From the IMG/VR virus record IMGVR_UViG_3300035210_000191: a stretch of DNA of 57,676 nt. One strand, given 5' to 3'. The DNA comes from an uncultured virus (IMG/VR IMGVR_UViG_3300035210_000191) (lineage: Duplodnaviria > Heunggongvirae > Uroviricota > Caudoviricetes). The notes beneath the pieces were generated by a model. The model did not search any database, was not told the DNA's origin, and saw nothing but the letters and a program-made list of their open reading frames with translations. The translations under genes were made by a program, and so were the position numbers. This document shows, in pieces, positions 8,308 to 54,210 of this stretch; within the stretch, counting starts at the first letter, position 1, and each line of letters starts with the position of its first letter.

Positions 8308-8403
8308 ACTTCTCCGCTCTATGCTTCTGTTAGAGGCATTATCTATTTAACTAAAAAATCAGCTACACACAAACACAATTAAATTTTCGTGGAGAAAAAT
8401 ATT

Positions 8404-9663
8404 ATGAACGCATTTATTCAAGAACTCAAACAACGTGGCCTCGTTTCTCAGATGACAGACGAAAGCAAAATTTCAGACCTTATGGATAATGGTTTGTCCC
8501 TATACTGCGGATTTGACCCAACAGCAGAGTCTTTGCATGTGGGTAGTCTTTTGCCATTGATTACTATGCTTCGCTTTAAGAAAGCAGGTCATACTGTGTT
8601 CCCATTGATTGGTGGTGCTACCGGCATGATTGGTGACCCTAGCTTTAAAGCACAAGAACGTACTTTGAATGACGCGGAAACCGTTAATCGTTTCAAAGCA
8701 GGTATTGCTGGTCAAATCAAACATATTCTGGGTGATGTAGAACTTGTTGATAACCATGATTGGACTGTTAACCTTTCAGTTATTGATTTCCTTCGTGATG
8801 TGGGTAAGCATTTCTCTGTGAATGCTATGATGAGTAAAGATTCGGTGCGTAGCCGCTTGGATCGTGATGATCAAGGTATTTCTTTTACTGAGTTCTCATA
8901 CCAGCTCCTGCAGTCAATGGACTTCCATCACTTGATGAAAGAGAAAAATTGCCGTCTTCAATTGGGTGGTAGCGATCAGTGGGGTAACATCACTGCGGGT
9001 ATTGACCTTATCCATCGTAAAGAAGGTAATGATGTCGTAGCCACTGGGTTGACGATTCCCTTGCTGACCAAAGCGGATGGCACGAAGTTTGGTAAAAGTG
9101 AAAGCGGTGCGGTTTGGTTATCCTCAGAAATGACCAGTCCTTTTGATTTCTTCCAGTTTTGGTTGAAAGTAGCCGATGCGGATATTCCGAAGTTCTTCAA
9201 AATGCTGTCCTTTAAGTCTATTGAAGAAATTGACGCTATCCTTGAAGCTGATAAAGAACGCACTAAACCGATGGCTCAACAGCTTTTGGCAGAGGAATTA
9301 ACTGCTATTGTTCATGGTCAAGCAGCACTTGATTCGGTATTGCGTAACATCAAAGCTTTGTTTGATAACAACTTTGATAGCTTGCAAGAAGATGATTTTG
9401 TCAACCTTGAAAAGAACGGCATGGTTGCTGTTGTTCCTGAGACATTGAATGTGCTTGATTTGATGGTCGCAACTGGTTTGTCTAAGTCGAAACGACAAGG
9501 CCGAGAGTTTATCCAGAGTGGTGCGGTTCAAGTAAACGGTAACAAGTTGGTAGTCAGCGAGGATGATATGAACGCTCTTGAAATTACAGATTTCAAGTTT
9601 GGTAAATTCGCTGTCTTTCAACGTGGCAAACGAGAGTTCAGATTGATTAAAAAGCCCGCCTAG
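8404..9663 (+). CDS. tyrS: tyrosine--tRNA ligase
   Basis: YCGFDPTAESLHVGS (HIGH-like), QLGGSDQWGNI, KFGKS (KMSKS-like), C-terminal S4-like domain; GGAG RBS. Confidence 0.97.
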   Translation: MNAFIQELKQRGLVSQMTDESKISDLMDNGLSLYCGFDPTAESLHVGSLLPLITMLRFKKAGHTVFPLIGGATGMIGDPSFKAQERTLNDAETVNRFKAGIAGQIKHILGDVELVDNHDWTVNLSVIDFLRDVGKHFSVNAMMSKDSVRSRLDRDDQGISFTEFSYQLLQSMDFHHLMKEKNCRLQLGGSDQWGNITAGIDLIHRKEGNDVVATGLTIPLLTKADGTKFGKSESGAVWLSSEMTSPFDFFQFWLKVADADIPKFFKMLSFKSIEEIDAILEADKERTKPMAQQLLAEELTAIVHGQAALDSVLRNIKALFDNNFDSLQEDDFVNLEKNGMVAVVPETLNVLDLMVATGLSKSKRQGREFIQSGAVQVNGNKLVVSEDDMNALEITDFKFGKFAVFQRGKREFRLIKKPA

Positions 9664-14239: not shown

Positions 14240-14301
14240 ATTGACCAAAATTTAAATGTTTGCTATACTCTACCCATAGAAAACAAACAGGATTAAATCA
14301 A

Positions 14302-27331: not shown

Positions 27332-27793
27332 ATGATTAAAAAAGAATGTGTATTATTTTTGGACTTTGATGGAGTTCTCCATTTCTTTTTCCCAGAAGAA
27401 AATAGTACCGATGAAGAAAATCAGTTTTTCTATTTTATCCCACAGTTTGAACGCTTTATCAGAGCTTTTTCTGACAGGGTTAACTTTAAAATTGTGATTT
27501 CTAGCACTTGGCGTGACAACAAAACGTTTAATCAACTTAAAGCACCTTTTTCAAAAGATATTCAAGAAATGATTGTAGGTGTTACTCCCAATCATTATGA
27601 TAACAGTGAAGGTAGCCGTTTACGTGAAGCCCAAGAATGGTTAATGGTTAATCAATATAATGGTTCGTGGATAGCGATTGACGATAATGCTAATATTTGG
27701 TATAATGCCCCTGAGTTATTTTTGTGCGAGAATGGTCTTAACCAATCTGTTATTGACGATTTTATTGCTCGCTTTGACCTATTAAGGAGTTAA
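27332..27793 (+). CDS. HAD-superfamily phosphatase (RNA-repair-like HAD), paralog of 26010
   Basis: LFLDFDGV, VISSTWR, GVTP, AIDD. Confidence 0.8.
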   Translation: MIKKECVLFLDFDGVLHFFFPEENSTDEENQFFYFIPQFERFIRAFSDRVNFKIVISSTWRDNKTFNQLKAPFSKDIQEMIVGVTPNHYDNSEGSRLREAQEWLMVNQYNGSWIAIDDNANIWYNAPELFLCENGLNQSVIDDFIARFDLLRS

Positions 27794-29954: not shown

Positions 29955-30039
29955 TGTTTCAAGATGATGTAAATCTATTGCAACACAACCTACGTTTGAT
30001 ATAATTAATTAATAAATTACTAATGGAGTTTTAACTTTG

Positions 30040-30852
30040 ATGAAGAAAACAATTTCGTATGCTATGATTTTTTCTGCAATTTTCATGGTCGGCTGTGAAC
30101 AAAAAGAATACCAAACACCCACAGAGCGTGGTGTTTCGAATTCAACACCAACTCAAACACAAACTACAGCTCCTAATAGCCAAGCTTATCAGGCCGTTTC
30201 AGAGACTGCAGAAGATAAAGAATTGAAAGATATGGTTGCTAAAATGAAAGCCCAAGATCCTTCAATTGTTGACGCTTATTACAGTGTTGATGAAGCTGGT
30301 CAAAAGGTGCTTAACCTTGTGAAAGAAGAAGCCGGTGCAGCCGTTGACGCCGCAGGTAATGTGGTTGAACAAGCAACCAGTGGTAGTGGTCTTAGTACCT
30401 TTATGTGGGCTATGGCTGGTGGTTTGACTGCCAGTGCTTTGTTTAATGCATTCAACAAGAACAAAGGTAACATGGCTGCTGTGAATAATCAGTATCGTCC
30501 GATGGATACTAAGCGTGGCACTTATTCATCGTATCAAGCACAAAAGCAATCGGCTGTGAGCAACTACCGTTCTAAGTTCACCCCAGTCAATGGTATGAAC
30601 TCAAATCGTAATGCGTTGGCCCCAGCAAAAGCTCCTGTTCGTCCAACCACACCCGTGACGAATGCACCAACTAATAAATTTACACCCGTAACACCAAACT
30701 CAGCAACAGGTGCCCCGTTGTCTAAGGATGCTTACAGAACTCAGGTTGTAACTAAACCTAAGACCACTAGCTCAAGTTACCAATCAGCACAACCTGCAAA
30801 AAAGACGACTATGTTTAAACGTAGTGGTAGCATTTTCAAAAAACGTCGCTAA
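30040..30852 (+). CDS. lipoprotein with Pro/Thr-rich basic tail
   Basis: lipobox-like FMVGC after a hydrophobic signal. Confidence 0.75.
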   Translation: MKKTISYAMIFSAIFMVGCEQKEYQTPTERGVSNSTPTQTQTTAPNSQAYQAVSETAEDKELKDMVAKMKAQDPSIVDAYYSVDEAGQKVLNLVKEEAGAAVDAAGNVVEQATSGSGLSTFMWAMAGGLTASALFNAFNKNKGNMAAVNNQYRPMDTKRGTYSSYQAQKQSAVSNYRSKFTPVNGMNSNRNALAPAKAPVRPTTPVTNAPTNKFTPVTPNSATGAPLSKDAYRTQVVTKPKTTSSSYQSAQPAKKTTMFKRSGSIFKKRR

Positions 30853-30871
30853 AATGTAAAGATACACGAAT

Positions 30872-30901
30872 AAAGACTTACTTCGGTAGGTCTTTTTTTT
30901 T
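30872..30901 (+). terminator. intrinsic terminator, C(UUCG)G loop
   Basis: AAAGACTTAC-TTCG-GTAGGTCTTT plus T-tract. Confidence 0.85.
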
Positions 30902-30929
30902 GATTTAAAATAAAGAGGATTAATAAATA

Positions 30930-31580
30930 ATGATTAAGCTATTTTCAGTATTATGTATGGCACTACTCCCTACATCAGTCTTTGCTGGTGAATTAGAAGT
31001 GGGTGGAACTGTCCCTACCATTGTTATTAGTGAATACCAGATAGAAACCAGTAAAGAAGCTTTAAAAGAAGTGGCTCAAATGAACTATAAGACTACAACA
31101 AAGAAAAGTATGAAAGAAAACAACTACATTGTGAACAGTGAAGCCATTAGGACTTCCAATATTTTATTAGAAGCCGGTACCGACATCAAAACCGTTCTGG
31201 GTAGGTATGGAAAACTTAATAAGTTTGGACAACCCTTTGTCTATGCGGATATAGAATTGAACAATGGAAGTATGGCAATTACAGCTCATCAAGAGTACAA
31301 GCTATACGAAGACAAAGAGATGATTTTAACATCTCACAATACGGTAGGTGCTTTGTATATTGATAAAAACAAGTTCTTGCTCTATTCCAGTCATAATTTA
31401 AAGACTAACAATAAAGCCTTCACAGGTAAAGATGGTAAGAAGACACCTGCTAGTGAGTTTTCAAAAGATATGGTGTTGACTCAAACCGTTAAGACACCGG
31501 GTCCAAAAATATTGAATATGGTGTTTGAAGATAACTCTCCCAATATTATTCATGTCTTTGTTGCAGACATTGTGTATTGA
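30930..31580 (+). CDS. secreted hypothetical protein
   Basis: signal peptide ending VFA. Confidence 0.7.
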   Translation: MIKLFSVLCMALLPTSVFAGELEVGGTVPTIVISEYQIETSKEALKEVAQMNYKTTTKKSMKENNYIVNSEAIRTSNILLEAGTDIKTVLGRYGKLNKFGQPFVYADIELNNGSMAITAHQEYKLYEDKEMILTSHNTVGALYIDKNKFLLYSSHNLKTNNKAFTGKDGKKTPASEFSKDMVLTQTVKTPGPKILNMVFEDNSPNIIHVFVADIVY

Positions 31581-31618
31581 TACAAAAAAGCCAGAAATCA
31601 TCTGGCTTTTCTTTACTC

Positions 31619-32359
31619 TTATTTTAGATTTAACTTTTTCAACATACATCCATTCGTGTCAAGATATTCAGTGTTATTCTTATAAGTGAATCCATAATTC
31701 TCAAGTAAAGCTATCATATCCTTGATAGTGAGTTCTTCAGTGATCTCATTGAGACTAACTTCAAAATGGTATTCGTCTACTTTGTGAAAATACTCTGGTA
31801 ATATTTCTTCTAGTATATGACTGACCAATAAGTCCGGTTCAGAGTCAACACTGTCATAAAAAATTACACATAATGATTCTTTTCTAAACTCACCTTTTCT
31901 AATCATTGGTGTGTCTAAACCATTTACTATAAACTTAGTCATGTTGCCATATGTTTCATAAGGAAAGTAGAAACAAAACTCATTAGCCACCTTCGTTTTA
32001 TTTTCAGGAGATAGCTTTGCTGTTTCTTTCATAAAAACTGAAAGTGCTTCTTCGTCATCTTCACCCTCATCTTCTTCAAGTTTTTTAATGTACTTTTTAA
32101 GAAATCTTTTCGCATTAAAGTCTTGTACACTTTCTGATTTAACTGGTTTCGTAATAATTTCATCAGCATTGATGACTGAAAGATCCCCATTTTTGTTTTC
32201 TATGATAAAACAGTTATCATACCCTTCAATAGAGAACTCACGAATGACATCACCATTGATATCTTTATACTTCTTTTCTCGCTTAATTTTAACTGTTGAA
32301 GTCAATCCACGTTGTTCTTTAATAAAGTTTTTGCAATCTTCTGTAGTCACCTTACTCAT
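31619..32359 (-). CDS. MSK(I/V)-family acidic protein
   Basis: MSKVTTEDCK; paralog of the next two genes. Confidence 0.8.
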   Translation of the reverse strand: MSKVTTEDCKNFIKEQRGLTSTVKIKREKKYKDINGDVIREFSIEGYDNCFIIENKNGDLSVINADEIITKPVKSESVQDFNAKRFLKKYIKKLEEDEGEDDEEALSVFMKETAKLSPENKTKVANEFCFYFPYETYGNMTKFIVNGLDTPMIRKGEFRKESLCVIFYDSVDSEPDLLVSHILEEILPEYFHKVDEYHFEVSLNEITEELTIKDMIALLENYGFTYKNNTEYLDTNGCMLKKLNLK

Positions 32360-32426
32360 ATAGTGCCTCCTATTTTATTGTTTATAAGTATAGAGCAAAT
32401 AAAAAGCCAGTGTTAACTGACACATC

Positions 32427-33146
32427 TTACTTTAGTTTCAATTTTGCCAACATGCACTCATTATCTTCCCAGTCAGCCTCATTTTTATATTTAAATCCTA
32501 AATCTTCCAAAATTTTAATCATGTCTCGAATACTTATCTTTTTAGTTGCACTGGTTTCTTTTAACTGATAATGGTATTCGTCCATTTTGTCTAGATAGGT
32601 TGGTATCATATCCATTAAAATATCACTGACGTATAAATCTGGATCGGAGTTAAAGCAATCCATAAATATGAAACAAAATGATTCTAGCTCACCACTGGCG
32701 TTTGTAATCATCAGCGTGTCTAACCCATTCGTAACATAATTGAGTTCGTTATAATACGTTTCATCAGGAAAAAAGAAGGTGAATTGATTAGCGACTTGAA
32801 ATTTTTGTTCTTTTGTTAATGCATTGGTCGCTTTAATAAAGTCATCCATTGAATCACCATTATTATAGTTTTCTAATGATTTGATACCTTTTTTTAGAAA
32901 TTTTTTGGCATCAAACTCTTTGGTTTCAGATTTAGACTTCTCAACTACATCAGCTTCATTTACCACGGAGAGATGACCTAAGATATCTTCTTTGATTAGA
33001 CACGTTTCATCATTAAATTTAAAAACACGAATAACATTGCCATTGACATCTTTATATTTTCGATCTCGCTTGATGTTGACAGTAGATGTCAATCCAAAGC
33101 GATCTTTAATGTAATTTTTGCAATCTTCTGTAGTAATTTTACTCAT
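32427..33146 (-). CDS. MSK(I/V)-family acidic protein
   Basis: start MSKITTEDCK. Confidence 0.8.
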   Translation of the reverse strand: MSKITTEDCKNYIKDRFGLTSTVNIKRDRKYKDVNGNVIRVFKFNDETCLIKEDILGHLSVVNEADVVEKSKSETKEFDAKKFLKKGIKSLENYNNGDSMDDFIKATNALTKEQKFQVANQFTFFFPDETYYNELNYVTNGLDTLMITNASGELESFCFIFMDCFNSDPDLYVSDILMDMIPTYLDKMDEYHYQLKETSATKKISIRDMIKILEDLGFKYKNEADWEDNECMLAKLKLK

Positions 33147-33178
33147 ATTATTTTTCCTACTGGTTAGTGTATGGTTGG

Positions 33179-33898
33179 TTATTTTAAATTGAGGTGTTTG
33201 AGCATACAATCATCTTCGTCACCATAAAACTCAGGGCAACTTTTATATGAAAAACCAAGGCTATCAAATAATGTTATGACATCATTGATTGTCATGTCCT
33301 TATTTTGTTTATTGGGTGTCATTTCAAAAATATTTTCATCGACTTTTTCAAAAAACTTAGGGATGATAACTCTCACAATTTCATCAAGATAGAGTTCAGG
33401 ATCAGATTTTAAGCTGTTATGGAAGAAAATCCCATAACACTGTGTGCCATATTTTCCAGATCTAAACATGGGTGTATCTAGGCCGTTTGTGACAGAATCC
33501 ATATCGTTTTCGTAAACCAAAGGGAAGCAGTAGTAAAATTCGTTAGCTATTTTAACTTTGTCTTCTTTTGACAAACGTTCACCTTCTGCTATAAATTCGT
33601 CCATACTTTCAATCCCATCGTCTTCATCATCACTAAATTTTTTAAGATATTTTCTGAGGAATGCTTTGGCATTAAAGAGTTTTTCTTTTTGATCTATCAT
33701 GTCTTCACTGACCAGTGATAACTGACCTTGATTGTCTTCTTTAATAAGATAGATATCAGTCTCGTTTATTTTAAAAACACGAATGACATCGCCATTGGCA
33801 TCTTTATATTTTCTATCTCGTTTGATATTGACTGTTGTAGTTAAGCCAAAGTGTTGTTTAATGAAATTTTTGCAATCTTCTGTAGTAATTTTACTCAT
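33179..33898 (-). CDS. MSK(I/V)-family acidic protein
   Basis: GGAG RBS, start MSKITTEDCK. Confidence 0.8.
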   Translation of the reverse strand: MSKITTEDCKNFIKQHFGLTTTVNIKRDRKYKDANGDVIRVFKINETDIYLIKEDNQGQLSLVSEDMIDQKEKLFNAKAFLRKYLKKFSDDEDDGIESMDEFIAEGERLSKEDKVKIANEFYYCFPLVYENDMDSVTNGLDTPMFRSGKYGTQCYGIFFHNSLKSDPELYLDEIVRVIIPKFFEKVDENIFEMTPNKQNKDMTINDVITLFDSLGFSYKSCPEFYGDEDDCMLKHLNLK

Positions 33899-34023
33899 GT
33901 ATTGACTCCAATTTATCAACTATCATAGCATAAAACACCACTTTTTGTCAAAATTTAATTTTATTATTTTTGTTGATGAAATTTCTATTTTGTGTTATTA
34001 TTCAATATATTTTGGAGATTATT

Positions 34024-34818
34024 ATGATATTTAAAGACGTTGAACGAGAGCTGACTCAGCTTTTTTCTACCAAATTTCCAGACGTTAATGTTAAATTATC
34101 TAAAGTTGACTCTGATATTGATGATGCCATTATGTTTAAATCCTCTTTTGATGATGGAAATAAATTTATAGGTTTTAAAATTCGTGACAATTCTATTATG
34201 GAAATCAAAGCAAGTCATAGACATTTAGAAAATGCTCATAAATTATTTTCTCTTAATAAGGTTAAAGTGGATGCTTTTAATATCATTCCAGTCTTTTTTA
34301 ATCTCCTGACAACAAACTCTAATTTTAATAGGTCTTTTACATTCCTAAACAACATGAATCAAAAAAAAATATTTCGTTTCTATAAAAGTGGGATGAATTA
34401 CATATTGCCACATATCACAGAAGATCAAGGTTTTTTTCGATTAACAAGTATCTTGGCAGAGTCTTTTTGCCAATTTTATCTTGAAAATTCTTTTAAATTA
34501 TCTCGTAATGGTAAATTTTTACCCATTCCAATGATTCGAATTTTTGGAGAGCAAAACGATGAGCAAGTTTTTGCCTTTAATCTCTATGATCAACAAGTCT
34601 ACAAGGTAAAAAAGAAATTGTTCTACTTTGAAGATTTTTTTGAATCCGCTGAATTGTTTGATGTTAACTATCATGGTGATATTTTAGTTGATGAACACCT
34701 TGATCATTATGTTATCAATGGATTGATAGATGACAAAACTATTAGAGAATCACTTATTGTTCTTCCAAGAGATCAATTGAAGAATAAAATTGATTTAATC
34801 TCAATGTACCTTATTTGA
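34024..34818 (+). CDS. hypothetical protein, paralog of 35750
   Basis: shared YLEN.FK, VFAFN, YHGDI, IRESLIVLPRD; ends LISMYLI. Confidence 0.78.
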   Translation: MIFKDVERELTQLFSTKFPDVNVKLSKVDSDIDDAIMFKSSFDDGNKFIGFKIRDNSIMEIKASHRHLENAHKLFSLNKVKVDAFNIIPVFFNLLTTNSNFNRSFTFLNNMNQKKIFRFYKSGMNYILPHITEDQGFFRLTSILAESFCQFYLENSFKLSRNGKFLPIPMIRIFGEQNDEQVFAFNLYDQQVYKVKKKLFYFEDFFESAELFDVNYHGDILVDEHLDHYVINGLIDDKTIRESLIVLPRDQLKNKIDLISMYLI

Positions 34819-34885
34819 TATAATTGTAATCTTGAAATATTTTTTCATCATGATAACCTTATATAATCAATAAAGGTATTATATT

Positions 34886-35686
34886 ATGGGCGGAATGGTA
34901 GCAGTGTTAGCAAGATTTAAAGACAACACAAAAATGTCATTTAGGATATCAACTGGGTGTTTGACGCCTTTTCATGATTTAAGATTGCTTGATGAGGATT
35001 ACTTTAAAGCCTTCGTTAAAAAAGAAGAATATTATATTGAAGACGCGGTAGCAGATTATGAACAGGAAGATTATTATAATGCTCGATGTTTTTTTGCACC
35101 CTATGATTATGGACTTCTCTTTTTTGATTTTAAAGAAAAACACATTTGGTCGAGTAATAACTATAATGGATTCTTTTCATTAAGCAGTTGGCAAGTTAAA
35201 TCTCAATATAAAGAAATTGCCGATATTTTATCTTATGGAACACAAACAAAAGAAACGTTAACTATTACTGAGCAAGATTATGTTAATGGTGAATTTATCA
35301 CAAGAAGGGAATATCATTTCCTTGAAGATTACTCACAAGAATTTAGTTCAATTTTCTATATGCAACAAGTCTTAGATAAAAAAGGAACCTTTACTTACAA
35401 AGGAAATCCATTACCAGATGAAATCACTGACATCTATTCTCTATTGGCTTATATTAATGGCGAAGATCTCTTGTTAGAAGAAAATTTAAAAAGAGATCGA
35501 GTTAAGAACAGAACTAGATTCCTTCGCAGTGATACGTGTGATTTAGATGCAGTTCTCCCTGATTGGACTATTTACAATGGTGATGGGAATGTTTCCTATA
35601 TACAACCCATATTTGATTATGTGGTTAAACACAATATCCTTAATGAACGCGATTTAAAATACTGGAACCAATACTTAAATGATTAA
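34886..35686 (+). CDS. hypothetical protein, divergent MGG family
   Basis: MGGMVAVLAR; APYDYGLLFFDFKE. Confidence 0.75.
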   Translation: MGGMVAVLARFKDNTKMSFRISTGCLTPFHDLRLLDEDYFKAFVKKEEYYIEDAVADYEQEDYYNARCFFAPYDYGLLFFDFKEKHIWSSNNYNGFFSLSSWQVKSQYKEIADILSYGTQTKETLTITEQDYVNGEFITRREYHFLEDYSQEFSSIFYMQQVLDKKGTFTYKGNPLPDEITDIYSLLAYINGEDLLLEENLKRDRVKNRTRFLRSDTCDLDAVLPDWTIYNGDGNVSYIQPIFDYVVKHNILNERDLKYWNQYLND

Positions 35687-35749
35687 TCTTTCATTTTAAT
35701 TGAAATCATAGGCACTTTATGCTATAATCTAGCAAATTATGGAGTATCT

Positions 35750-36535
35750 ATGAACGACGATAAGATTCCACAACCCATTGCTGACTTATTTGCTTCTCGT
35801 TATCCGAAAAGCAAATTTGAGTCCACATCTATCAATGATATTATCATTTTCAAATCGACATTTGATAAAGAAAAACAATTTGTTGACTTTATTTTTAAGA
35901 AAAATTCAATTACTACCATAAAAACCAATAATAAATACCTTCCAGAAGTTAAAAAGCTTTTGTCTATTAATAAGATGAAACGTAGTGACTTTAAGATTGT
36001 AGACGATTTTTTTACTCTCATAAATTCAAACAGCAATTTTGATAAAATTTTTTATATGGAGAACAAAATTCTTCCTACTGAAATTTGTTCGTTCAAACGT
36101 GACGGCACGTCTGCTTTTACATTACCTTTTATTGCGAACACACATTCTCGCACTTATCTTATCACTAAGATAAGCAAAAGTTATTTTATGTATTACTTAG
36201 AGAATCACTTTAAGATGACGAAAGATGGCACCATCTTAATTGTTCCTATAATCACCTTGTTTGAGCATCAGAAAAATGAGCATGTATTTGCCTTTAACAT
36301 TTATGATCAGACTATTCATCGCATTCGAAATGAAGAATTTTACTTTGAAGACTTATTTGAAAACAATGAGCCTTTCAATCCAGAATATCATGGTGATATT
36401 TTTGTCGATGAATATATTGATAACTACATTCTTAACACCCTTGACGATGATGACGAAATCAGAGAATCCCTTATTGTATTGCCAAGAGATCGTTTGAGCG
36501 AAAAAGTAGACATTCTTTCTATGTATCTGATCTAA
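35750..36535 (+). CDS. hypothetical protein, paralog of 34024
   Basis: GGAG RBS; ends ILSMYLI. Confidence 0.78.
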   Translation: MNDDKIPQPIADLFASRYPKSKFESTSINDIIIFKSTFDKEKQFVDFIFKKNSITTIKTNNKYLPEVKKLLSINKMKRSDFKIVDDFFTLINSNSNFDKIFYMENKILPTEICSFKRDGTSAFTLPFIANTHSRTYLITKISKSYFMYYLENHFKMTKDGTILIVPIITLFEHQKNEHVFAFNIYDQTIHRIRNEEFYFEDLFENNEPFNPEYHGDIFVDEYIDNYILNTLDDDDEIRESLIVLPRDRLSEKVDILSMYLI

Positions 36536-36614
36536 ACATGTCGCCTATAATTTAAATTGACAAAAATTGTAACATGATATACTATTGCATAAATTTTATT
36601 ACAGGAGAATTATT

Positions 36615-36842
36615 ATGTTTTATGTCTATCATGGCTATGTTTCACCCGACAACTACGATTCAAGCGAACGTCCTACTTATCAACTTAGTTCTTTTCATAC
36701 CGAAGATGAAGTCATAGCATTTAAAGAAGAGTTTGAAGCTGAACTTCATGATGAATGTATGAAACCTATTTTTAGAGTCATCACAGGTAGAGAAATGTCA
36801 TTGAAACCCGTAGAAACCGTCACTACTTGGAAACTATCATAA
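36615..36842 (+). CDS. small hypothetical protein
   Basis: AGGAG RBS, TTGACA promoter at 36557. Confidence 0.7.
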   Translation: MFYVYHGYVSPDNYDSSERPTYQLSSFHTEDEVIAFKEEFEAELHDECMKPIFRVITGREMSLKPVETVTTWKLS

Positions 36843-36856
36843 CTTAGGAGTTATCT

Positions 36857-37705
36857 ATGCACTATATTAAGTATGTATTAAGCTTTATCTTATTACTGGT
36901 ATTGGCTGGTTGTAATGATACACCTGATGACGTTCGGCCAACAGCAGATGCAAAAGTCTATTTTGATCAACAACTGAAAACTACTCTGGCTGCTGCAAAG
37001 TCAAAAGAAGACCCTTTTGAAGCTTATCAACTATTGTTAAGGGCTTATTATGGTCTAGGTAATGATAAGGAAAAACTACTCTATAAAGATGACACTAGAA
37101 AGTTATATATTGCTCAATCTGGATTTGTTGTGAACGGCGGTTCAGCACTAGATAATAAACAAGAAGCGATTAATAATATGTATGTTTATTTAGAGTCTGC
37201 TTTGAAAAATGGTAATAAAAAAGCTTTTCTAGAATTATATGAAGGCGAACAATCAGAACCAGCTAACTTTGGTAATGATATGACAATGAGGCTTAAATCT
37301 GATCAATTGCAAACTAAATTCAGCGAAGCTTATAAAAATTTAGTTGAAACACTTTCAGTAGGTGATCCTATTGATAATGCTCTGATTACAAGCTATGCAA
37401 GCCAACTTAAAAATGGTGAGTTCTATCAAAAGAATACAGCTAAGTCAGTTGAATACTATCTCAAACTCTACCCAGTTGATAAAGTTGTTCCTTTATACTT
37501 GATTGGTGTCTATTTGGATATCAATGATTATGAGAATGCTTATTTCTGGAAAGTTCGTTGTATTGATGCCTGTGATGCTAGATATAAGAAAATTAGTATT
37601 GTTAGTCGAAATCTACCTGACTTATTCAGAAAACAGCTAACCAGTGATCAATTTAAAGCTATCGAAGAAGCTTCCAATGATCCAACAAGAACAAGTTTTA
37701 AATAA
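36857..37705 (+). CDS. lipoprotein, possibly Sel1/TPR-like helical
   Basis: lipobox LAGC; YENAYFW motif. Confidence 0.75.
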   Translation: MHYIKYVLSFILLLVLAGCNDTPDDVRPTADAKVYFDQQLKTTLAAAKSKEDPFEAYQLLLRAYYGLGNDKEKLLYKDDTRKLYIAQSGFVVNGGSALDNKQEAINNMYVYLESALKNGNKKAFLELYEGEQSEPANFGNDMTMRLKSDQLQTKFSEAYKNLVETLSVGDPIDNALITSYASQLKNGEFYQKNTAKSVEYYLKLYPVDKVVPLYLIGVYLDINDYENAYFWKVRCIDACDARYKKISIVSRNLPDLFRKQLTSDQFKAIEEASNDPTRTSFK

Positions 37706-37718
37706 TCTAACATACCGC

Positions 37719-37747
37719 TTGAATTTTTTTAAGCGGGCTGCTATAAT
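37719..37747 (+). promoter_or_regulatory. sigma70 promoter for the Ser/Tyr leader
   Basis: TTGAAT-17-TATAAT; overlaps CCGCTT..AAGCGG inverted repeat. Confidence 0.7.
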
Positions 37748-37781
37748 GGATACTATTATTTACTTTGTGGAGAAATACAAA

Positions 37782-37832
37782 ATGAAACCTACATTTGCTG
37801 TATCCTATTATTATTCATCATATTCTAGTTAA
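37782..37832 (+). CDS. putative attenuator leader peptide MKPTFAVSYYYSSYSS
   Basis: GGAG RBS at 37769; last 9 codons all Ser or Tyr. Confidence 0.7.
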   Translation: MKPTFAVSYYYSSYSS

Positions 37833-37921
37833 CTGACCAGAGTAGAGGTCAGTTATGGCCTCGAATTCTTGGATAGTAATTATCTTAGACCCTTTGAAGG
37901 CCACCTTCAGAGGGTTTTTTT
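37830..37921 (+). promoter_or_regulatory. attenuator-like RNA structures ending in an intrinsic terminator
   Basis: TAACTGACC/GGTCAGTTA stem (37830-37855); TGGCCTCGAA/TTTGAAGGCCA alternative pairing; terminator ACCCTTTGAAGG-CCA-CCTTCAGAGGGT-T6 (37889-37921). Confidence 0.65.
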
Positions 37922-37961
37922 ATGTCCATAGTGGCAGGGTTAAGTTCAACCTAAAACAATG

Positions 37962-37974
37962 TAAGTTGTTGATT
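37962..37974. promoter_or_regulatory. IHF-consensus site
   Basis: TAAGTTGTTGATT matches the reverse complement of WATCAANNNNTTR. Confidence 0.4.
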
Positions 37975-38011
37975 TAAAAAGAAAATAGTTTAAAATAATT
38001 TAAAATAGTTG

Positions 38012-38040
38012 TTGACAAAGACGAAAGAAGTTGATAGAAT
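38012..38040 (+). promoter_or_regulatory. strong sigma70 promoter of the tRNA array
   Basis: TTGACA-17-TAGAAT with AT-rich UP-like region. Confidence 0.8.
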
Positions 38041-38092
38041 GTTAAACATGAAGAGTTGAGAAGAAAAACGAAAAACTCTTAGTAACACAAAT

Positions 38093-38180
38093 GGAAGATT
38101 GGTCGAGTGGCCGATGGCGTCAGTCTTGAAAACTGAAGGGTGTAACAGCTCCGTGAGTTCGAATCTCACATCTTCCTCCA
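38093..38180 (+). tRNA. tRNA-Ser(UGA), U73 discriminator
   Basis: cloverleaf, TCAGT-CT-TGA-AA-ACTGA, long variable arm, encoded CCA. Confidence 0.93.
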
Positions 38181-38202
38181 AATTTAGTTTCAAAAGTATC
38201 AT

Positions 38203-38286
38203 GGTTAGTTGGCAGAGTGGACGATTGCGGGGGACTGTAAATCCCTTCCGAAAGGCACGGTGGTTCGAATCCATCACTAACCACCA
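38203..38286 (+). tRNA. tRNA-Tyr(GUA)
   Basis: GGGGA-CT-GTA-AA-TCCCT, TTCGAAT loop, ACCA end. Confidence 0.93.
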
Positions 38287-38308
38287 AATTAGTTGTAAAC
38301 TGTTTTAT

Positions 38309-38392
38309 GGGAGTTTCGCATAGTGGCCGATTGCACGGGACTGTAAATCCTGCTCGAAAGACTCGGTGGTTCGAATCCATCAACTCCCACCA
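38309..38392 (+). tRNA. tRNA-Tyr(GUA)
   Basis: CGGGA-CT-GTA-AA-TCCTG, ACCA end. Confidence 0.93.
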
Positions 38393-38420
38393 AATTTAGA
38401 TGTAATCGTAAGAACAATAT

Positions 38421-38509
38421 GGACGCATTTCCTGTCATCCGCCTGTAAAGCGGACGCCTTTATAAGACAGGTCGGTTGGCGAGAGGTTCGAATCCTTGTG
38501 CGTTCACCA
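38421..38509 (+). ncRNA. non-canonical tRNA-Tyr(GUA)-like RNA lacking a D-arm, predicted pseudoknot
   Basis: acceptor GGACGCA/TGCGTTC-ACCA, anticodon arm TCCGC-CT-GTA-AA-GCGGA, T-loop TTCGAAT; CCTGTC complementary to GACAGG. Confidence 0.75.
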
Positions 38510-38531
38510 AATTAGTTGTAAAACCGTATAT

Positions 38532-38619
38532 GGAAGCTTGGCCGAGTGGTTTAAGGCAACAGTCTTGAAAACTGTCGGGTGTAATAGCCCCGTGAGTTCG
38601 AATCCCACAGCTTCCGCCA
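38532..38619 (+). tRNA. tRNA-Ser(UGA)
   Basis: ACAGT-CT-TGA-AA-ACTGT, GCCA end. Confidence 0.95.
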
Positions 38620-38642
38620 GATTAGATACAATGTTTTATTAT

Positions 38643-38726
38643 GGGTGTTTCGCATAGAGGCCGATTGCGGCTGGCTGTAAACCAGCATCGAAAGACACGG
38701 TGGTTCGAATCCATCAACACCCACCA
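38643..38726 (+). tRNA. tRNA-Tyr(GUA)
   Basis: GCTGG-CT-GTA-AA-CCAGC, ACCA end. Confidence 0.93.
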
Positions 38727-38739
38727 AATTTATATTTAT

Positions 38740-38792
38740 GGAGAGTATGGGGCTGTTGTTATCTCGTAACAATGGTTAACCGCTATCCACCA
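38740..38792 (+). ncRNA. CCA-ended mini-hairpin tRNA-like RNA 1
   Basis: GGAGAGT/GCTATCC acceptor-like stem, internal 10-bp hairpin, ACCA end. Confidence 0.6.
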
Positions 38793-38796
38793 ACAT

Positions 38797-38884
38797 GGAA
38801 GCGTGGCCGAGTGGTTTAAGGCAACAGTCTTGAAAACTGTCGGGTGTAACAGCCCCGTGAGTTCGAATCTCACCGCTTCCGCCA
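38797..38884 (+). tRNA. tRNA-Ser(UGA)
   Basis: near-identical to the 38532 copy, GCCA end. Confidence 0.95.
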
Positions 38885-38890
38885 AATTAT

Positions 38891-38941
38891 GGGGAGAAGG
38901 GTTGTCTTTTATTTATAGAAGGCGATATCCGCTACCCACCA
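38891..38941 (+). ncRNA. CCA-ended mini-hairpin tRNA-like RNA 2
   Basis: GGGGAG/CTACCC stem, internal 11-bp hairpin, ACCA end. Confidence 0.6.
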
Positions 38942-38961
38942 TTTCATCGTCAAAAAACTTC

Positions 38962-38989
38962 AAGAACAACGCAATGTTGTTCTTTTTTT
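38962..38989 (+). terminator. terminator of the tRNA array
   Basis: AAGAACAAC-GCAAT-GTTGTTCTT plus T-tract. Confidence 0.85.
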
Positions 38990-39066
38990 ATTTATAAAAT
39001 TTTAATTGATTTTTTATGTAATTAAGAGTATCATTCTTTTTCAATTTATGATAAGGGATTTAATTA

Positions 39067-40139
39067 ATGAAAATGAAGTTAAGATATTTTTTAGTGTTAT
39101 TGTTATCACTTGTCATATCAACAAGTCAAGCAAACTCTTTAACAAGTCACATACCTTTTTTTCCGTCTAAAAAAACTATTATTAAAGGTGTTCTGGTAAC
39201 TGGAACTATTGGAGTGCTTGGCTACTATGTTTATTCACAATTATCTAAATTTATTGAAAATACAATAAAAAAAATGATGAGGGAAAAATATCTGACTGGG
39301 AAACAGCTAATCTTATAGCTAAAGAAATTGATAAAATACTCAATAATCCTAAAAAAACAGATCAACAAAAAAGTCAAAGTGTTGTTGAAGCTCAACAATT
39401 GTTGCTTTATTATGCCATTGCGTACTATGAACCTAATGGAAACGATATTTATGATATTGCAATTAGGACCGCAAAAAAAGCAAATATTTATACTGGTGAT
39501 TTCGATTATGAGTTACAACAAGGCATTAAAATGACGACTGAAATTATGCGTAATATGATTTCATTAGCTAATGAAAAAGATATGGAAGATACTAAGTCAA
39601 AAAGAAATAAGTGTGATATTAATGATATAGCTGCTAGAACATATATTTACAATTCATTAAATCCAATTGATCCATTGTACACGGATGTTAATCGACCTAT
39701 ACGTGAATTTGACACTGGAGCTTATAAAAACTTAAACTTTGTAACCAAAAAATATGCAAAATTGTATAAAATAAAAGATAATTTTGATCATGATCATATT
39801 CCGTCTTTTGCTTCATTAAAAACTTATTTAGAAAATAGAGATCAATATGTAATAAATTTTGATAATAAATTAAGGAACGTTATTCAACAAAATGGCACTG
39901 TAGTTGCAATTAATCAAGCAATGTACGCTGCTGGGCGAACGTATAAGGGGCGAGCTACATCTACTATGATAAGAGATTCAAAAGATCTTAGAAAAGCAAC
40001 TATAAAAGATTTTAAGATGCATTATTATTATTACAAAAAAAATGGATCAAGTAACCCTAGTTTTGAAACTTTATTTAATAAAGCTTTTATACAAACGTAT
40101 CAAAGAAATAAAATGATGTGTTTATATGTTAACCGATAG
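39067..40139 (+). pseudogene. frameshifted secreted polymorphic-toxin-like gene (ORFs 39067..39318 and 39399..40139)
   Basis: signal peptide plus TM in frame 1; -1 frame open from 39258 across an A8 run at 39267-39274; C-terminal DHDHIPS...GRTYKG motif. Confidence 0.55.
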
Positions 40140-40749: not shown

Positions 40750-41652
40750 ATGTACCAATTACAATCATTTGCAAAAAATGAAAAAGGCAGAGACTTCATT
40801 GTGGGTGATATACATGGTATGTATGACTCATTAATGAAACTTCTCGAATCCGTCAACTTCGATAAAAACATTGATAGATTATTTTCTGTGGGTGATTTAA
40901 TAGATCGTGGACCAAAATCAATGGAGGTTCTTTATCTTAATAACCAGAGTTGGTTTTTCGCTGTATTGGGTAATCATGAAACCATGTTGCTCACTGGTCA
41001 TTTATCGTATTCCAAAGATTGGGTTACGCATTTAAGCAAGAAAGAAAAAGAAACATGTCTGGATATTATCAAGACCTTACCGATTGCTATTGAAATAGAA
41101 ACCAGTCTTGGCCCTATTGGATTGGTTCATGCCCAAGTCCCTACCCAGTTCAATGATTGGAATGAGTTCAAACACTATCTCACTGCAGCTAACCTATCCT
41201 ATGAAATGAGTTCTATTAATGATTCTGGTAGTGTGATTAGAGATGCGTTGTGGGGTAGGAAGCGTATTTACAGAGAGTTGAAAAAGAATGGTACCGCATT
41301 TGCCAGAAAAGCTTACATCAAATTTATTAAAGATGGCTTATGGAATAGAACGACCTTATACAGAATCATTACGACCAGAAAAACATTGCCTTACATTAAA
41401 CATGGGCTATCATTCTCATTCCGATACATCATCGAAAAATTTAAACGTAAATTACACCCACAAAGTTATATCGACAATATTGCCTATACCTTTCATGGAC
41501 ACACCCCCGTTAAGAAACCATTACTATTAGGTAATCAGTTCTTTATAGATACGGGAGCTGTGTATGGGATGAAGAAAAACAAACAAGGGTCTTTAACCAT
41601 GATTGAAATTTGTGATGATTTAAAAGTTCACACCTTACTCATTGACCAATAA
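40750..41652 (+). CDS. metallophosphoesterase, PphA/lambda NinI-like Ser/Thr phosphatase
   Basis: GDIHG, GDLIDRG, GNHE, HA, GHTP, IDTG motifs. Confidence 0.9.
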   Translation: MYQLQSFAKNEKGRDFIVGDIHGMYDSLMKLLESVNFDKNIDRLFSVGDLIDRGPKSMEVLYLNNQSWFFAVLGNHETMLLTGHLSYSKDWVTHLSKKEKETCLDIIKTLPIAIEIETSLGPIGLVHAQVPTQFNDWNEFKHYLTAANLSYEMSSINDSGSVIRDALWGRKRIYRELKKNGTAFARKAYIKFIKDGLWNRTTLYRIITTRKTLPYIKHGLSFSFRYIIEKFKRKLHPQSYIDNIAYTFHGHTPVKKPLLLGNQFFIDTGAVYGMKKNKQGSLTMIEICDDLKVHTLLIDQ

Positions 41653-46390: not shown

Positions 46391-47296
46391 TCAGATTTTA
46401 ATCATTTCTACCAGCACAAAATATTCTTTAAGTTCATCAATAGTGAGTTCGTTAACATCTGATTTTCTCATTTTTAATGTTTCACAAATAACATTTTTAG
46501 CTTCTGCCCTAAATTGATTTTCGAAAAAATCTGTCAATGATTGACTATCAACATCTATGCTATTCAACTTTCTCAAAAAATCATTTTTCAAGGGGACTTC
46601 ACTGGCAGCAAAATACATTTTTTTAGGATTATTTATTGGAATTATACACATTATTTTATTATGTGCTGAATAGGGGAATTTTATTTTAAAATATGGCTTA
46701 ATAGTTTCATCAGGCTCTACAAGATGAATTACTTCGATATTAATATAAGACTTCTTGAAATAATTCTTTTGAGCACCCCGGCCTCGTTGAAGAATATTAT
46801 TAAAGCTTACTGTTGCAATATTTTTGTCTTTGAATTTTAATTGATTGAAATAACCATCATTGTAGAAATGAGTGTTCATGTGTGGGATATATTTTTTCAT
46901 TTCGACACTGTTAATCAAACCAGACTCAATACCTTTGTTAATGAAAATATCGACAATATTGAGAGCTTTCTCAAAATCTGGTTTATATTTATCTTGAAGA
47001 AAATCAGCTATATTATTAGCTTTTTGACTAAGAACAGTTCGCAATGTCGGGCCATAAGACATAACACTTATTTCTGGGTAGTAGTGTAGTTTTTCTTGGC
47101 TGCTTTTAGTTTTATTTTCAAAATATATTTGCATAGTCCATTGATCATTTTCTGTTGTTGCTTTATAAATTGTAGCTGCAATATCATTATCAGAAAATCT
47201 TTGTTGTTCTACATTGTGTTGATTGAATACAAATAAAGGTGAAATGGATTTCACAAAATGATTAACAGATGACTTATTGAGTAGTGTTTTAAACAT
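46391..47296 (-). CDS. tandem-array paralog 2 of 9
   Basis: family motifs; start at MFK after GGAG. Confidence 0.8.
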   Translation of the reverse strand: MFKTLLNKSSVNHFVKSISPLFVFNQHNVEQQRFSDNDIAATIYKATTENDQWTMQIYFENKTKSSQEKLHYYPEISVMSYGPTLRTVLSQKANNIADFLQDKYKPDFEKALNIVDIFINKGIESGLINSVEMKKYIPHMNTHFYNDGYFNQLKFKDKNIATVSFNNILQRGRGAQKNYFKKSYINIEVIHLVEPDETIKPYFKIKFPYSAHNKIMCIIPINNPKKMYFAASEVPLKNDFLRKLNSIDVDSQSLTDFFENQFRAEAKNVICETLKMRKSDVNELTIDELKEYFVLVEMIKI

Positions 47297-47367
47297 GAAA
47301 GACTCCACAATTATGGCTAATTAATGTAGTATTATACCATAAAGGACTTGGCTAAGTCCATATTTTG

Positions 47368-48291
47368 TTATATTTTAATCATCTCTACCAGCATAAAATA
47401 ATCTTTTAATTCATCTGCAGATAAATTATCTAATTCAGTTTTCTTAATTTTCAATGTTTTAGAAATTGTTGTTTTTATTTCATTTTCGATTTCACCCTTA
47501 AAATATTCAGCTAACTTGTCTTTTTTTAAAGGCATTGAAATTATTTTATCAATAGGTGTTATTCTCAACGACTCAGAATCCCCCACCAAATAAAGTATAT
47601 CACCACCTGCTAGTGGAAGAACATAAGTGTTTTTATTCGTTGCTGATGTAGGTAGTTTTATTTGAAAATAGATATTTACTTCATTCATTGAGTCTACTAA
47701 ATAAACTACATTTATACATATAAACGATTTTTTAAAATGTGTTCCGTTTTTTCCTGTTCCCTTTTGAAGCACATTATTAAATTTAATACTCGCATAGTTT
47801 TTATCCCATAGCTTTATTTGTCCATGATAATGATTGATATGCATATGAGAAATCATGTGTTTTTTATATTTTTTCACATCAACACTGTTAAACATGCCAG
47901 AATGAAGACCTTGTTCAATAAAAATATCAATAATCTCAATAACTCTGTCAAAATCAGGGGTATAAGTTGTTTGTAAAAATTCAGCAATCTCTTTGCTTTT
48001 TTGGAATCTCTCAGCAACAGATTCTCCATTGTAATGGGTCATCTTAGATTTCAGATCTTTTTCGAATGAAACATAGGGATAAAACTTCTTTCTAATCATG
48101 TTGTCTTTTTTTGGACCATAAAATTGTGTTATTAATTGCCAGCCTTCGTCAGCTTGTGCTATATATTTTGTAGATTCAGAATCATTAAAACCATCGTAAT
48201 ATTCATCTGTGTATTTTGAGTATTTAAACAACGGCTCAAATATTTTGAGTATGTTATTGGCCTCTTGATAATTCTTGTATGAGTTAAACAT
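47368..48291 (-). CDS. tandem-array paralog 3 of 9
   Basis: family motifs; ends LVEMIKI. Confidence 0.8.
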   Translation of the reverse strand: MFNSYKNYQEANNILKIFEPLFKYSKYTDEYYDGFNDSESTKYIAQADEGWQLITQFYGPKKDNMIRKKFYPYVSFEKDLKSKMTHYNGESVAERFQKSKEIAEFLQTTYTPDFDRVIEIIDIFIEQGLHSGMFNSVDVKKYKKHMISHMHINHYHGQIKLWDKNYASIKFNNVLQKGTGKNGTHFKKSFICINVVYLVDSMNEVNIYFQIKLPTSATNKNTYVLPLAGGDILYLVGDSESLRITPIDKIISMPLKKDKLAEYFKGEIENEIKTTISKTLKIKKTELDNLSADELKDYFMLVEMIKI

Positions 48292-48317
48292 AATATTCTC
48301 CAAAACGTTCCATTCAA

Positions 48318-49247
48318 TTAAATCTTCAGCATTTCAACGAGTACAAAATACTCTTTCAATTCTTCTGGTGTTATTCCATCCATATCTGACTTATTAATTT
48401 TCAGTGTTTTAGAAATAGATGTTTTCATTTCTTTGTAAAACTCTTTATCAAAAAAATCTTTTAACTCTGTTTCGTCCATTGAAATTGAAGGCAATGTATC
48501 AATGCATTCTCTTCTCAATTTGTCATCGTTTGCCATAAAATAGACAATAGCCTTTCCTGTTAATGGAATCACACAGGTTGCTTTTCGAGACTCTGAATAT
48601 GGTAATCTTATTTTGAAATAAGGGTGCATTGTGTTATCAGAGTGAGCTAGATAATCAATAGATACACTAATGTAGGATTTTTTGTAGTGAGTAGTGCCAC
48701 GATAACCAGAAACCCCTTTCTGCAGGATATTATTAAAAGTTACTGTACCAAAGTTATTGTCACCAATGGTAATAGTTCCAGAATAATGATTGGTGTTTAA
48801 ATGAGTTTTCATCACTTTTTTGTATTTTCTCACTGCAAGGCTTTTAAACAGTCCACATTCAATTCCTTTCTCAACAAAGAGTTTAAGAACAGTAAACATT
48901 CTATCAAAATCTGGATTGTAGGTCTTTTGTAAGAGTTCCACAATTTCTTTGCCTTTAAGTCTTCTGTCTTTGTGTTGATCTTCGTCAAAATTACGAACAC
49001 GATCTCCCAGTTGTTTAAATTTAATTTCTGGGTAGTAGGACTTTTGATCACTTTTTGAATTTTTTTTGTTATAAAACTCAATATACAATTCCCAATTATC
49101 ATCAGTTATTGCCGTATAGGTTGTGACAGAGATGTTGAAATCCGTATAGGGCTTGAACTCTTCATTAAATTTGACAAAATTGAACACTTTTGAAAACAGA
49201 GTGACCAGATGATTGGCTTCTGGGTGGTTCGGATAGGTATTAAACAT
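48318..49247 (-). CDS. tandem-array paralog 4 of 9
   Basis: family motifs; ends LVEMLKI. Confidence 0.8.
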   Translation of the reverse strand: MFNTYPNHPEANHLVTLFSKVFNFVKFNEEFKPYTDFNISVTTYTAITDDNWELYIEFYNKKNSKSDQKSYYPEIKFKQLGDRVRNFDEDQHKDRRLKGKEIVELLQKTYNPDFDRMFTVLKLFVEKGIECGLFKSLAVRKYKKVMKTHLNTNHYSGTITIGDNNFGTVTFNNILQKGVSGYRGTTHYKKSYISVSIDYLAHSDNTMHPYFKIRLPYSESRKATCVIPLTGKAIVYFMANDDKLRRECIDTLPSISMDETELKDFFDKEFYKEMKTSISKTLKINKSDMDGITPEELKEYFVLVEMLKI

Positions 49248-49362
49248 AATATACTCCAAAAATATTTAATAATTGTATCATAAATAAATATTGATTGCTA
49301 TTTTTTTTGCAATAAAAAAAGACCTTTCTTAAGGTCTTTTATCGGACTTCATGAAAAGTCAG

Positions 49363-50304: not shown

Positions 50305-50388
50305 GGGATTCTCCAAATTATTAATATAAATATCATAACATTAAAAACAACAAATACCATTGTATACGGATAATTTGATAGACTATTT

Positions 50389-51294: not shown

Positions 51295-51327
51295 AATAAT
51301 CTCCGGTGGTGAATTATTTCAATAATT

Positions 51328-52236: not shown

Positions 52237-52276
52237 AATTGGCTCCAAATAATTACCTAATTATAGCATACTTTCA

Positions 52277-53191: not shown

Positions 53192-53227
53192 AGATAACTC
53201 CAAATAATTATTGATTACGATAAAAGT

Positions 53228-54145: not shown

Positions 54146-54210
54146 AGCATTCTCCACAAATATTTGTCATATTATACCATAAAACATTAAAAATTACTAT
54201 TTAAACAGAC

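Follow-up and report, generated by a model that had tools for sequence, protein, structure and literature searches.

A candidate Ser/Tyr leader-peptide attenuator upstream of a serine and tyrosine tRNA array in an uncultured phage

Why would a phage place a very short open reading frame (ORF), most of it serine and tyrosine codons, in front of tRNA genes for the same two amino acids? The question is raised by positions 37719 to 38989 of a 57,676-nucleotide stretch of DNA from an uncultured member of the Caudoviricetes (IMG/VR record IMGVR_UViG_3300035210_000191), the whole of which we call the window. An earlier note on the sequence had proposed that the ORF encodes the leader peptide of an attenuator controlling the tRNA array. 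We analyzed the locus computationally and found the proposal supported by sequence conservation, by a diverged homologue, and by compensatory changes in the predicted RNA helices. With moderate confidence, we interpret the leader as a multivalent Ser/Tyr attenuator of the trp/his/thr type, which would feed extra transcription from its own promoter into the array.

All the classical parts of an attenuator are present on the plus strand, in the right order and with the right spacing, and every feature listed in the earlier note was confirmed. The unit opens with a sigma-70-type promoter, P1 (37719..37747), in which TTGAAT and TATAAT are separated by 17 nt and accompanied by an extended –10 TG; 10 of its 12 positions agree with the consensus. 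Close behind it lie a Shine–Dalgarno sequence, GGAG (37769..37772), 9 nt upstream of an ATG (37782), and a leader ORF of 16 codons (37782..37832) with the product MKPTFAVSYYYSSYSS. Translation verified that its last nine codons (37803..37829), TCC TAT TAT TAT TCA TCA TAT TCT AGT, all specify serine or tyrosine, as the earlier note had read them. Between the leader and the tRNA genes stands an intrinsic terminator, helix D (37887..37921; –20.1 kcal/mol), where a stem with a CCA loop is followed by seven Ts; the stem had been described as 12 bp long and in fact comprises 14 bp (37887–37917). A second promoter, P2 (38012..38040), previously raised as a caveat, precedes the array and matches the consensus at 11 of 12 positions (TTGACA and TAGAAT spaced by 17 nt, with TG and an AT-rich upstream region). 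P1 and P2 were the top two promoter matches within 2.5 kb in a consensus scan. P2 is not a repeated element within the window, and a high summed depth over its region probably derives from AT-rich low-complexity matches.

The array (38093..38884, plus strand; ARAGORN, and Rfam RF00005 with 52–61 bits) consists of three Ser(UGA) tRNAs (38093–38180, 38532–38619, and 38797–38884) and three Tyr(GUA) tRNAs (38203–38286, 38309–38392, and 38643–38726), all with an encoded CCA. By both methods, these six are the only tRNAs in the entire 57.7-kb window, and the Ser/Tyr codon run sits 260 nt upstream of them. With its nine codons, the run exceeds every other of its kind in the six frames of the window, the runner-up having six. 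Among 200 second-order Markov simulations of the window, none contained a run of nine or more and one contained a run of eight, while 126 had no run of six or more, which puts the observation far outside chance expectation.

When IMG/VR was searched with the 3' portion of tRNA-Tyr from the phage, 14 loci were returned, one of which, L015, contains a diverged counterpart of the leader. L015 lies on a 437,043-bp contig, G001 (CheckV completeness 98%), whose tyrosyl-tRNA synthetase (TyrRS) is 80% identical to that of the window, and its array consists only of Ser(CGA), Ser(GCU), Tyr, Tyr, Ser(UGA), and Ser(AGA) tRNAs. The two loci are 76% identical over 361 nt by BLAST and 84% identical in a MAFFT alignment. 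The layout of promoter, ribosome site, short ORF, and terminator before the array is the same. P1 of L015 has the same hexamers and 17-nt spacing around a different spacer sequence; the ribosome site, AGGA, is likewise 9 nt upstream of the ATG; the terminator (2033–2055 plus T7) carries five changes and forms 13 pairs with one internal mismatch; and P2 (2153–2181) again has the same hexamers. The adjacent upstream gene in L015 is on the opposite strand, and the terminator therefore cannot simply belong to that gene.

The leader ORF of L015, MKTTLMTTSYYYSYYSH, retains the ATG and the TAA, and its stop codon holds the same place relative to the first hairpin, while the N-terminal KPTFAV has become KTTLMTT through an in-frame indel of one codon. 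As the leaders differ in length by exactly one codon, the frame is kept. Within the codon run, 23 of 27 nt are identical, with TCA changed to TAC (Ser to Tyr) and AGT to CAT (Ser to His), and the resulting L015 run, SYYYSYYS, has eight consecutive Ser/Tyr codons. Judged from these two sequences, a free N-terminus combined with a retained frame and run is the pattern predicted for a leader peptide. The earlier note had reasoned that its proposal would fail if the run were not conserved in homologues; the run is kept in L015 as well as in the near relatives described below.

The segment between the leader and the terminator can form several helices that exclude one another. Hairpin A (37830..37855) spans the stop codon and pairs 37830–37838 with 37847–37855 over 9 bp (–12.8 kcal/mol), as the earlier note had found. 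Hairpin B (37845..37862) pairs 37845–37851 with 37856–37862 over 7 bp, with a 6-bp core of –9.3 kcal/mol. The antiterminator, C (37856..37903), pairs 37856–37865 with 37893–37903, that is, with the 5' arm and loop of the terminator; this previously noticed alternative pairing comprises 10 bp with one bulge and has an energy of –9.3 kcal/mol as drawn, the best duplex reaching –12.1 to –12.5 kcal/mol. A and B share 37847–37851, and B and C share 37856–37862, so that A, B, C, and D form a chain of mutually exclusive structures. The geometry as first outlined included A, C, and D and was incomplete in two respects: we added hairpin B and a pairing of 37821–37826, within the last Ser/Tyr codons, with 37839–37844, which appears in the consensus fold. 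With these two, the chain of alternative helices is of the his/thr style.

Comparison with L015 revealed compensatory changes in these helices and, at two further pairs, changes to wobble pairs. In hairpin A, the pair 37834–37851 changes from T–A to C–G and the pair 37837–37848 from C–G to T–G. Hairpin B was retained by RNAalifold, with a change of 37851–37856 from A–U to G–C and of 37846–37861 from A–U to G–U. Position 37851 has thus changed in concert with 37834 and also with 37856, its two alternative partners, as one would expect of a two-state switch. In the antiterminator of L015, the terminator arm GAAGG has become GGAGG and its partner CUCGAA has become CUCUAG, turning the bulged helix into an unbroken one of 8–9 bp (GGCCUCUA with UGGAGGCC, –15.7 kcal/mol). 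The MAFFT columns of the terminator were off by one, and the comparison of C and D was reread by eye.

We then considered the folding of the leader RNA. The fold is more stable than those of shuffled sequences (z = –3.9; 1 of 200 shuffles as good). In the free RNA, the codon run pairs downstream, 37807–37817 with 37870–37880 and 37822–37828 with 37860–37866, and its duplex with 37856–37886 has an energy of –11.9 kcal/mol, compared with –6.3 ± 2.0 kcal/mol for shuffles, of which 8 of 1,000 were as good. For transcripts that end at 37903, antiterminator C is the fold of lowest energy. When a ribosome was represented by a mask with its A site at 37806–37818, transcripts ending at 37903 folded into A plus C; with the mask on codons 9–13, the same was true of transcripts ending before the 3' arm of the terminator, in the window and L015 alike. 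For stalled, truncated transcripts, such masked folds agree with the proposed switch; two other outcomes, given below, do not.

These parts suggest the following course of events. P1 would start the transcript, and ribosomes would begin to translate its 16-codon leader. In a shortage of charged tRNA-Tyr or tRNA-Ser, the ribosome would stall on codons 8–13 (S-Y-Y-Y-S-S), covering the run and leaving hairpin A uncovered. A would then form and block B, and 37856–37865 would remain free to pair with the 5' arm of the terminator as soon as that is made. Since C excludes D, RNA polymerase would pass 37921, cross P2, and enter the Ser/Tyr tRNA array. With fast decoding, a ribosome at the stop codon would cover the 5' arm of A, B would lock 37856–37862, and the terminator would form. 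On a transcript with no ribosome, the codon run would pair downstream, B or a long-range stem would follow, and D would again end transcription. The presumed benefit is a feedback loop topping up the basal level from P2 when Ser/Tyr codons are read slowly, possible causes being the cleavage of tRNAs by host defenses, a failure of charging, or a Tyr-rich demand created by the phage itself.

Near relatives allowed us to assess how strongly the unit is conserved. We compared Logan contigs from four sequencing runs of differing origin over 36857–39400; these are contigs that carry no transcript ends, and the RNA origin of one run, X13, is a guess. Contigs from three further habitats are at least 99% identical to the leader unit, whereas their flanks diverge. 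A 346-nt contig from wastewater (X13) covers 37716–37941 with one difference, C to T at 37741, the free base of the TGn motif; the likeness starts at 37716, and the other 120 nt of the contig, upstream of this point, do not resemble the window. A contig from groundwater (X16) covers 37727–37941 with two differences, at 37741 and 37767. A 2,347-nt contig from a further run, X8, shows 11 substitutions in the 69 nt of 37648–37716 and, in the P1 spacer, one deletion, one insertion, and one substitution that together leave the spacing at 17 nt. Its listed changes in the interval 37748–37921 are C to A at 37792 (Thr4 to Lys) and T to C at 37886, one base before the terminator stem, bearing in mind that 9 of its 24 differences have no listed location. 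All changes listed for the four runs fall outside the Ser/Tyr codons and helices A–D. The tRNA genes differ more in the X8 relative (9 of 285 nt and 11 of 136 nt, with one tRNA replaced outright), and the leader is thus at least as constrained as the tRNAs.

Several observations weigh against the attenuator interpretation. Under standard wobble rules, the leader codons TCC and AGT are not decoded by tRNA-Ser(UGA). P2 is near consensus, lies between the terminator and the array, and is kept in L015; the attenuator could therefore do no more than raise a basal level, perhaps over a small dynamic range. Taken by itself, the antiterminator pairing is unexceptional, with 183 of 1,000 shuffles as good. 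The covariation comes from two full sequences, the other relatives being nearly identical. Co-evolution of the two antiterminator arms is only partly supported by duplex energies: the cognate combinations have –12.1 (window) and –15.7 kcal/mol (L015) and the cross-combinations –14.6 and –9.7 kcal/mol, values that are compatible with co-evolution and not decisive for it. In some contigs from X8 and X13, the T-tract and P2 region (from 37912) is joined to another terminator-like sequence, reflecting either relatives with another leader or a second locus that shares the promoter region.

The folding calculations add two further difficulties. Truncated transcripts with the ribosome at the stop codon also gave C as the minimum-energy fold, and the distinction between a stalled and a finished ribosome consequently depends on B forming first. 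At full length, the terminated fold was favored at equilibrium at every ribosome position, by 9.8–11.3 kcal/mol in the window and 4.7–5.8 kcal/mol in L015 with the ribosome stalled and by 13.8 and 9.1 kcal/mol, respectively, with the ribosome at the stop codon. The switch, if real, must therefore be kinetic, and kinetic switching is the accepted view of the trp attenuator. In favor of the interpretation, stalling narrows the gap by 2.5–4.4 kcal/mol relative to a ribosome at the stop codon. A terminator-free minimum-energy fold of L015 was not counted, as it depended on the 5' untranslated region pairing with the U-tract.

The rarity of the arrangement is a further point on the negative side. 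G001 carries 27 tRNAs and has the leader scaffold once; in the 520 nt upstream of 10 other tRNA sites of that phage, none had a matched short ORF and terminator. Three more distant TyrRS-bearing jumbo phages (G002–G004), with TyrRS 37–40% identical and arrays sorted by isotype (Ser x4, Leu x4), had no matching codon cluster in 10 upstream stretches; a single scan match among them, QFQAPPPF, lay inside an uncalled tRNA-like sequence and was rejected. The leader design is not general within the lineage, being absent at 20 other tRNA sites in four phages, and the expectation that related genomes would have leaders matched to their adjacent arrays came true in L015 and at none of these 20 sites. 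Pattern searches gave a similar picture. Exact and degenerate leader patterns had no matches in viral contigs (first pattern) or genome contigs, and looser leader and P2 patterns matched the L015 contig alone. A TyrRS search of viral contigs reached only the 37–40% relatives and missed G001, which was found through the tRNA-Tyr pattern. The protein encoded upstream of the leader led to no relatives in the viral contig set and, among metagenome contigs, to only two partial matches of 39 residues with no tRNAs nearby.

The leading alternative is an independent small gene, producing a structured RNA of ~165 nt or a micropeptide of 16–17 residues and having no control over readthrough; we regard it as unlikely. 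In its favor, promoter and efficient-looking terminator both belong to the unit itself, the array having a conserved promoter of its own, and an RNA-level function fits the near-total nucleotide conservation that extends to third codon positions. The stable fold and the retention of the terminator in all equilibrium folds point the same way. A plain small RNA nevertheless leaves unexplained why ribosome site, ATG, frame, and stop persist through changes in the N-terminal residues, why a substitution in the run stays within Ser and Tyr, why the run matches the only tRNAs nearby, and why two mutually exclusive hairpins covary through one shared base. For a micropeptide under selection, the changes at five of seven N-terminal residues and at the last residue are unexpected.

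A translated sensor with another output, for example one that alters how stable the P1 transcript is or how it is processed, or that modulates P2 by transcriptional interference, seems improbable to us. The conserved ORF and codon run fit it as well as they fit antitermination, the pairing of C is statistically unremarkable, and conserved P2 begins only ~90 nt past the terminator, so that any readthrough from upstream must cross it. Yet a chain of helices reaching the 5' arm of the terminator and kept by two-sided changes is needed only for antitermination, and transcriptional interference would cut the supply of tRNAs just when they are short. The last explanation, a chance ORF in a spacer whose terminator insulates against upstream transcription, is close to refuted, and we give it hardly any weight. 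AT-rich DNA does make TAT, TCA, TCT, and AGT common, and the upstream gene of the window is on the same strand, ending at 37705. Against this stand the simulations, none of the 200 reaching such a run in 57.7 kb and six frames; the better conservation of the unit than of its flanks and of the tRNAs in relatives; the opposite-strand neighbor in L015; and the frame and run kept at 76–84% identity.

Ribosome-mediated attenuation is known for amino-acid biosynthesis and synthetase genes. In enterobacteria, multivalent leaders control thr (Thr/Ile), ilvGMEDA, and ilvBN, and other leader attenuators precede trp, his, leu, and pheA. The present leader resembles those of amino-acid operons in its promoter-proximal ORF (14–28 codons in that class), in having codons for more than one amino acid, in the stop codon beside the first hairpin, and in exclusive helices leading to a terminator; the position of the ribosome selects the fold in that class and would do so here. 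It differs from them in the tRNA genes downstream, the phage setting, and the second conserved promoter before the genes. The pheM leader/attenuator controls the synthetase operon pheST of Escherichia coli by stalling at Phe codons; there, too, stalling at the codons for one amino acid governs part of the machinery that translates them, whereas the product here is tRNA and the charged tRNA that would be sensed derives from the regulated product itself. T-box riboswitches bind uncharged tRNA directly and need no translation. The candidate attenuator would share with them the sensing of a specific tRNA's charging state and a switch between terminator and antiterminator, and an Rfam scan of the leader reported no specifier-loop or T-box motif. 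The Rfam family RF00514 (His_leader) aligns with 37815–37923, covering the end of the run, the hairpin, and the terminator. Its score is 32.2 bits against a gathering threshold of 49 (E = 0.0099 in 2.5 kb and 0.0014 in 356 nt) and the leader here has no His codons; we take the match as architectural likeness and not as membership. A possible attenuator at E. coli pheV was dropped as a precedent, the K-12 locus having a promoter directly before pheV and no Phe-rich ORF. In the full-text literature searched, to which subscription papers did not belong, we found no leader-peptide attenuator described before tRNA genes or in a phage. The mechanism is of a known kind; its use on tRNA genes and in a virus is new as far as we could find in those texts.

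If the interpretation holds, the supply of tRNA would be under direct feedback from decoding speed, and a virus would monitor the translation state of its host codon by codon. Why a phage might need this is suggested by recent work on tRNA-cleaving defenses. The PtuAB nuclease of retron-Eco7 depletes tRNA-Tyr and T5 evades it through a highly expressed tRNA-Tyr (PMC11555353), T6 counters Septu by a SegB-driven amplification of tRNA-Tyr (PMC13096335), and the dosage of phage tRNA-Tyr decides the outcome under a host nuclease that depletes tRNA-Tyr (PMC11555353, PMC13096335). Septu and retron-Eco7 cut the variable loop, and the Ser and Tyr tRNAs of the array (84–88 nt) both have long variable arms. 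T5 and T6 raise the tRNA dose by a strong promoter or by gene amplification, whereas a feedback sensor is proposed here, and such a sensor would add a means of dose control to the arms race shown for tRNA-Tyr (PMC11555353, PMC13096335). We infer a link to tRNA-cleaving defense systems, with the Ser/Tyr-only array of three copies each possibly serving as a counter to such nucleases.

A second candidate sensor precedes the TyrRS gene of the window. The full-length TyrRS (8404..9663, plus strand; TIGR00234, 388.6 bits; phrog_9270, 7e-152; Pfam tRNA-synt_1b) probably starts at ATG 8404 rather than at GTG 8389. An upstream ORF at 8254–8403 encodes MNASNTFHFQKSFTVRY, and its counterpart in G001 (L033, 1373–1505) encodes MKATFHFQKSFTVRY; the final 11 residues are identical in the two phages despite four synonymous changes, and the last codon is Tyr. 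Directly past the stop codon, an anti-Shine–Dalgarno sequence (UUCUCC) pairs with the Shine–Dalgarno sequence of TyrRS (GGAGAA) over 8 bp and 10 bp, and this helix encloses a hairpin whose sequence differs between the phages while its pairing is kept. A ribosome held at the stop codon of the upstream ORF, or at the Tyr codon before it, might unmask TyrRS for translation. G001 further encodes, at L034 (141–1424) and L035 (539–1804), a seryl-tRNA synthetase (SerRS; TIGR00414, 505 bits) and a threonyl-tRNA synthetase-like protein, and by synteny a SerRS gene may lie just outside the window in its phage. The SerRS of G001 and the upstream ORF of TyrRS provide context that favors the attenuator.

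Rather speculatively, these elements might together form a self-contained Ser/Tyr decoding module that evolved against nucleases of long-variable-arm tRNAs, similar to Septu or retron PtuAB. The module would comprise SerRS, TyrRS, the Ser and Tyr tRNAs, and the unusual tRNA-like RNAs described below, with the attenuator and the upstream ORF of TyrRS as its two ribosome-read sensors. On this view, the virus would use the attenuator to sense an immune attack on tRNA.

Besides the six tRNAs, the array contains RNAs of less usual form, all on the plus strand. The Tyr-like RNA (38421–38509), which had been counted with the array in the earlier note, is called by neither ARAGORN nor Rfam and lacks the cloverleaf with a D arm of a canonical tRNA. 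It has a 7-bp acceptor stem, an anticodon stem-loop with CUGUAAA (anticodon GUA), a T arm, and CCA, and only 10 nt in place of a D arm between the acceptor and anticodon stems; the loop of its 27-nt variable region can pair with this stretch (CCUGUC with GACAGG). Covariation with its counterpart in L015 (~2864–2943) indicates that the RNA is real: read by eye, all five anticodon-stem pairs are swapped compensatorily around an unchanged anticodon loop, and in the acceptor stem A7–U79 has become C–G and G2–U84 has become G–C. It could be a working, if odd, tRNA or a decoy for a nuclease of tRNA-Tyr. Two mini-helix RNAs of ~52 nt were recognized by folding, one within the array (38741–38793) and one after its last tRNA (38891..38941). 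In both, an acceptor-like stem whose fourth pair is a conserved mismatch is combined with a single long hairpin and an ACCA at the 3' end; their counterparts in L015 lie at ~2700–2740 and 2950–3008; in the proposed module they would figure as CCA-ended mini-helices. A terminator with a 10-bp stem and a T run (38962..38989) closes the array. Elsewhere in G001, a tRNA with the anticodon CUA (L027, 1648–1721) appears to be an amber suppressor, labeled Pyl by ARAGORN, and conserved, repeated structured sequences of ~100–230 nt lie directly upstream of some single tRNAs (L029, L030, and L031).

The window has ~32% G+C, and its genes are mostly ORFans. Its phage hallmarks are an S49 head-maturation protease (phrog_53, Peptidase_S49), the full-length TyrRS, and the three domains of RNA-end-healing type given below, and we read it as a piece of an environmental jumbo phage; the sequencing runs matching it best are peat metagenomes. 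No near match was found among GenBank phages, and at lower stringency only the tRNAs matched. The protein of the gene adjoining the leader has relatives at 85%, 60%, and 40–50% identity, and its protein cluster also occurs on a contig of 391,564 bp. A HAD_SAK_2 domain ("Swiss Army Knife RNA repair," 27332–27793), a MYG1 exonuclease (14260–15210), and a NinI-like metallophosphatase that additionally touches an RNA-ligase PHROG (40750–41652) share the window with TyrRS and the tRNA array, and these three domains of RNA-end-healing type may hint at tRNA repair. Paralogous ORFans with no match to a Pfam or PHROG family form two tandem runs, at 46391–54157 on the minus strand and at 30037–37705. 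One comprises eight genes of ~300–317 aa, spaced by ~950–1,045 nt and containing repeat families D1–D4, and the other, adjoining the leader, consists of genes of 246–282 aa.

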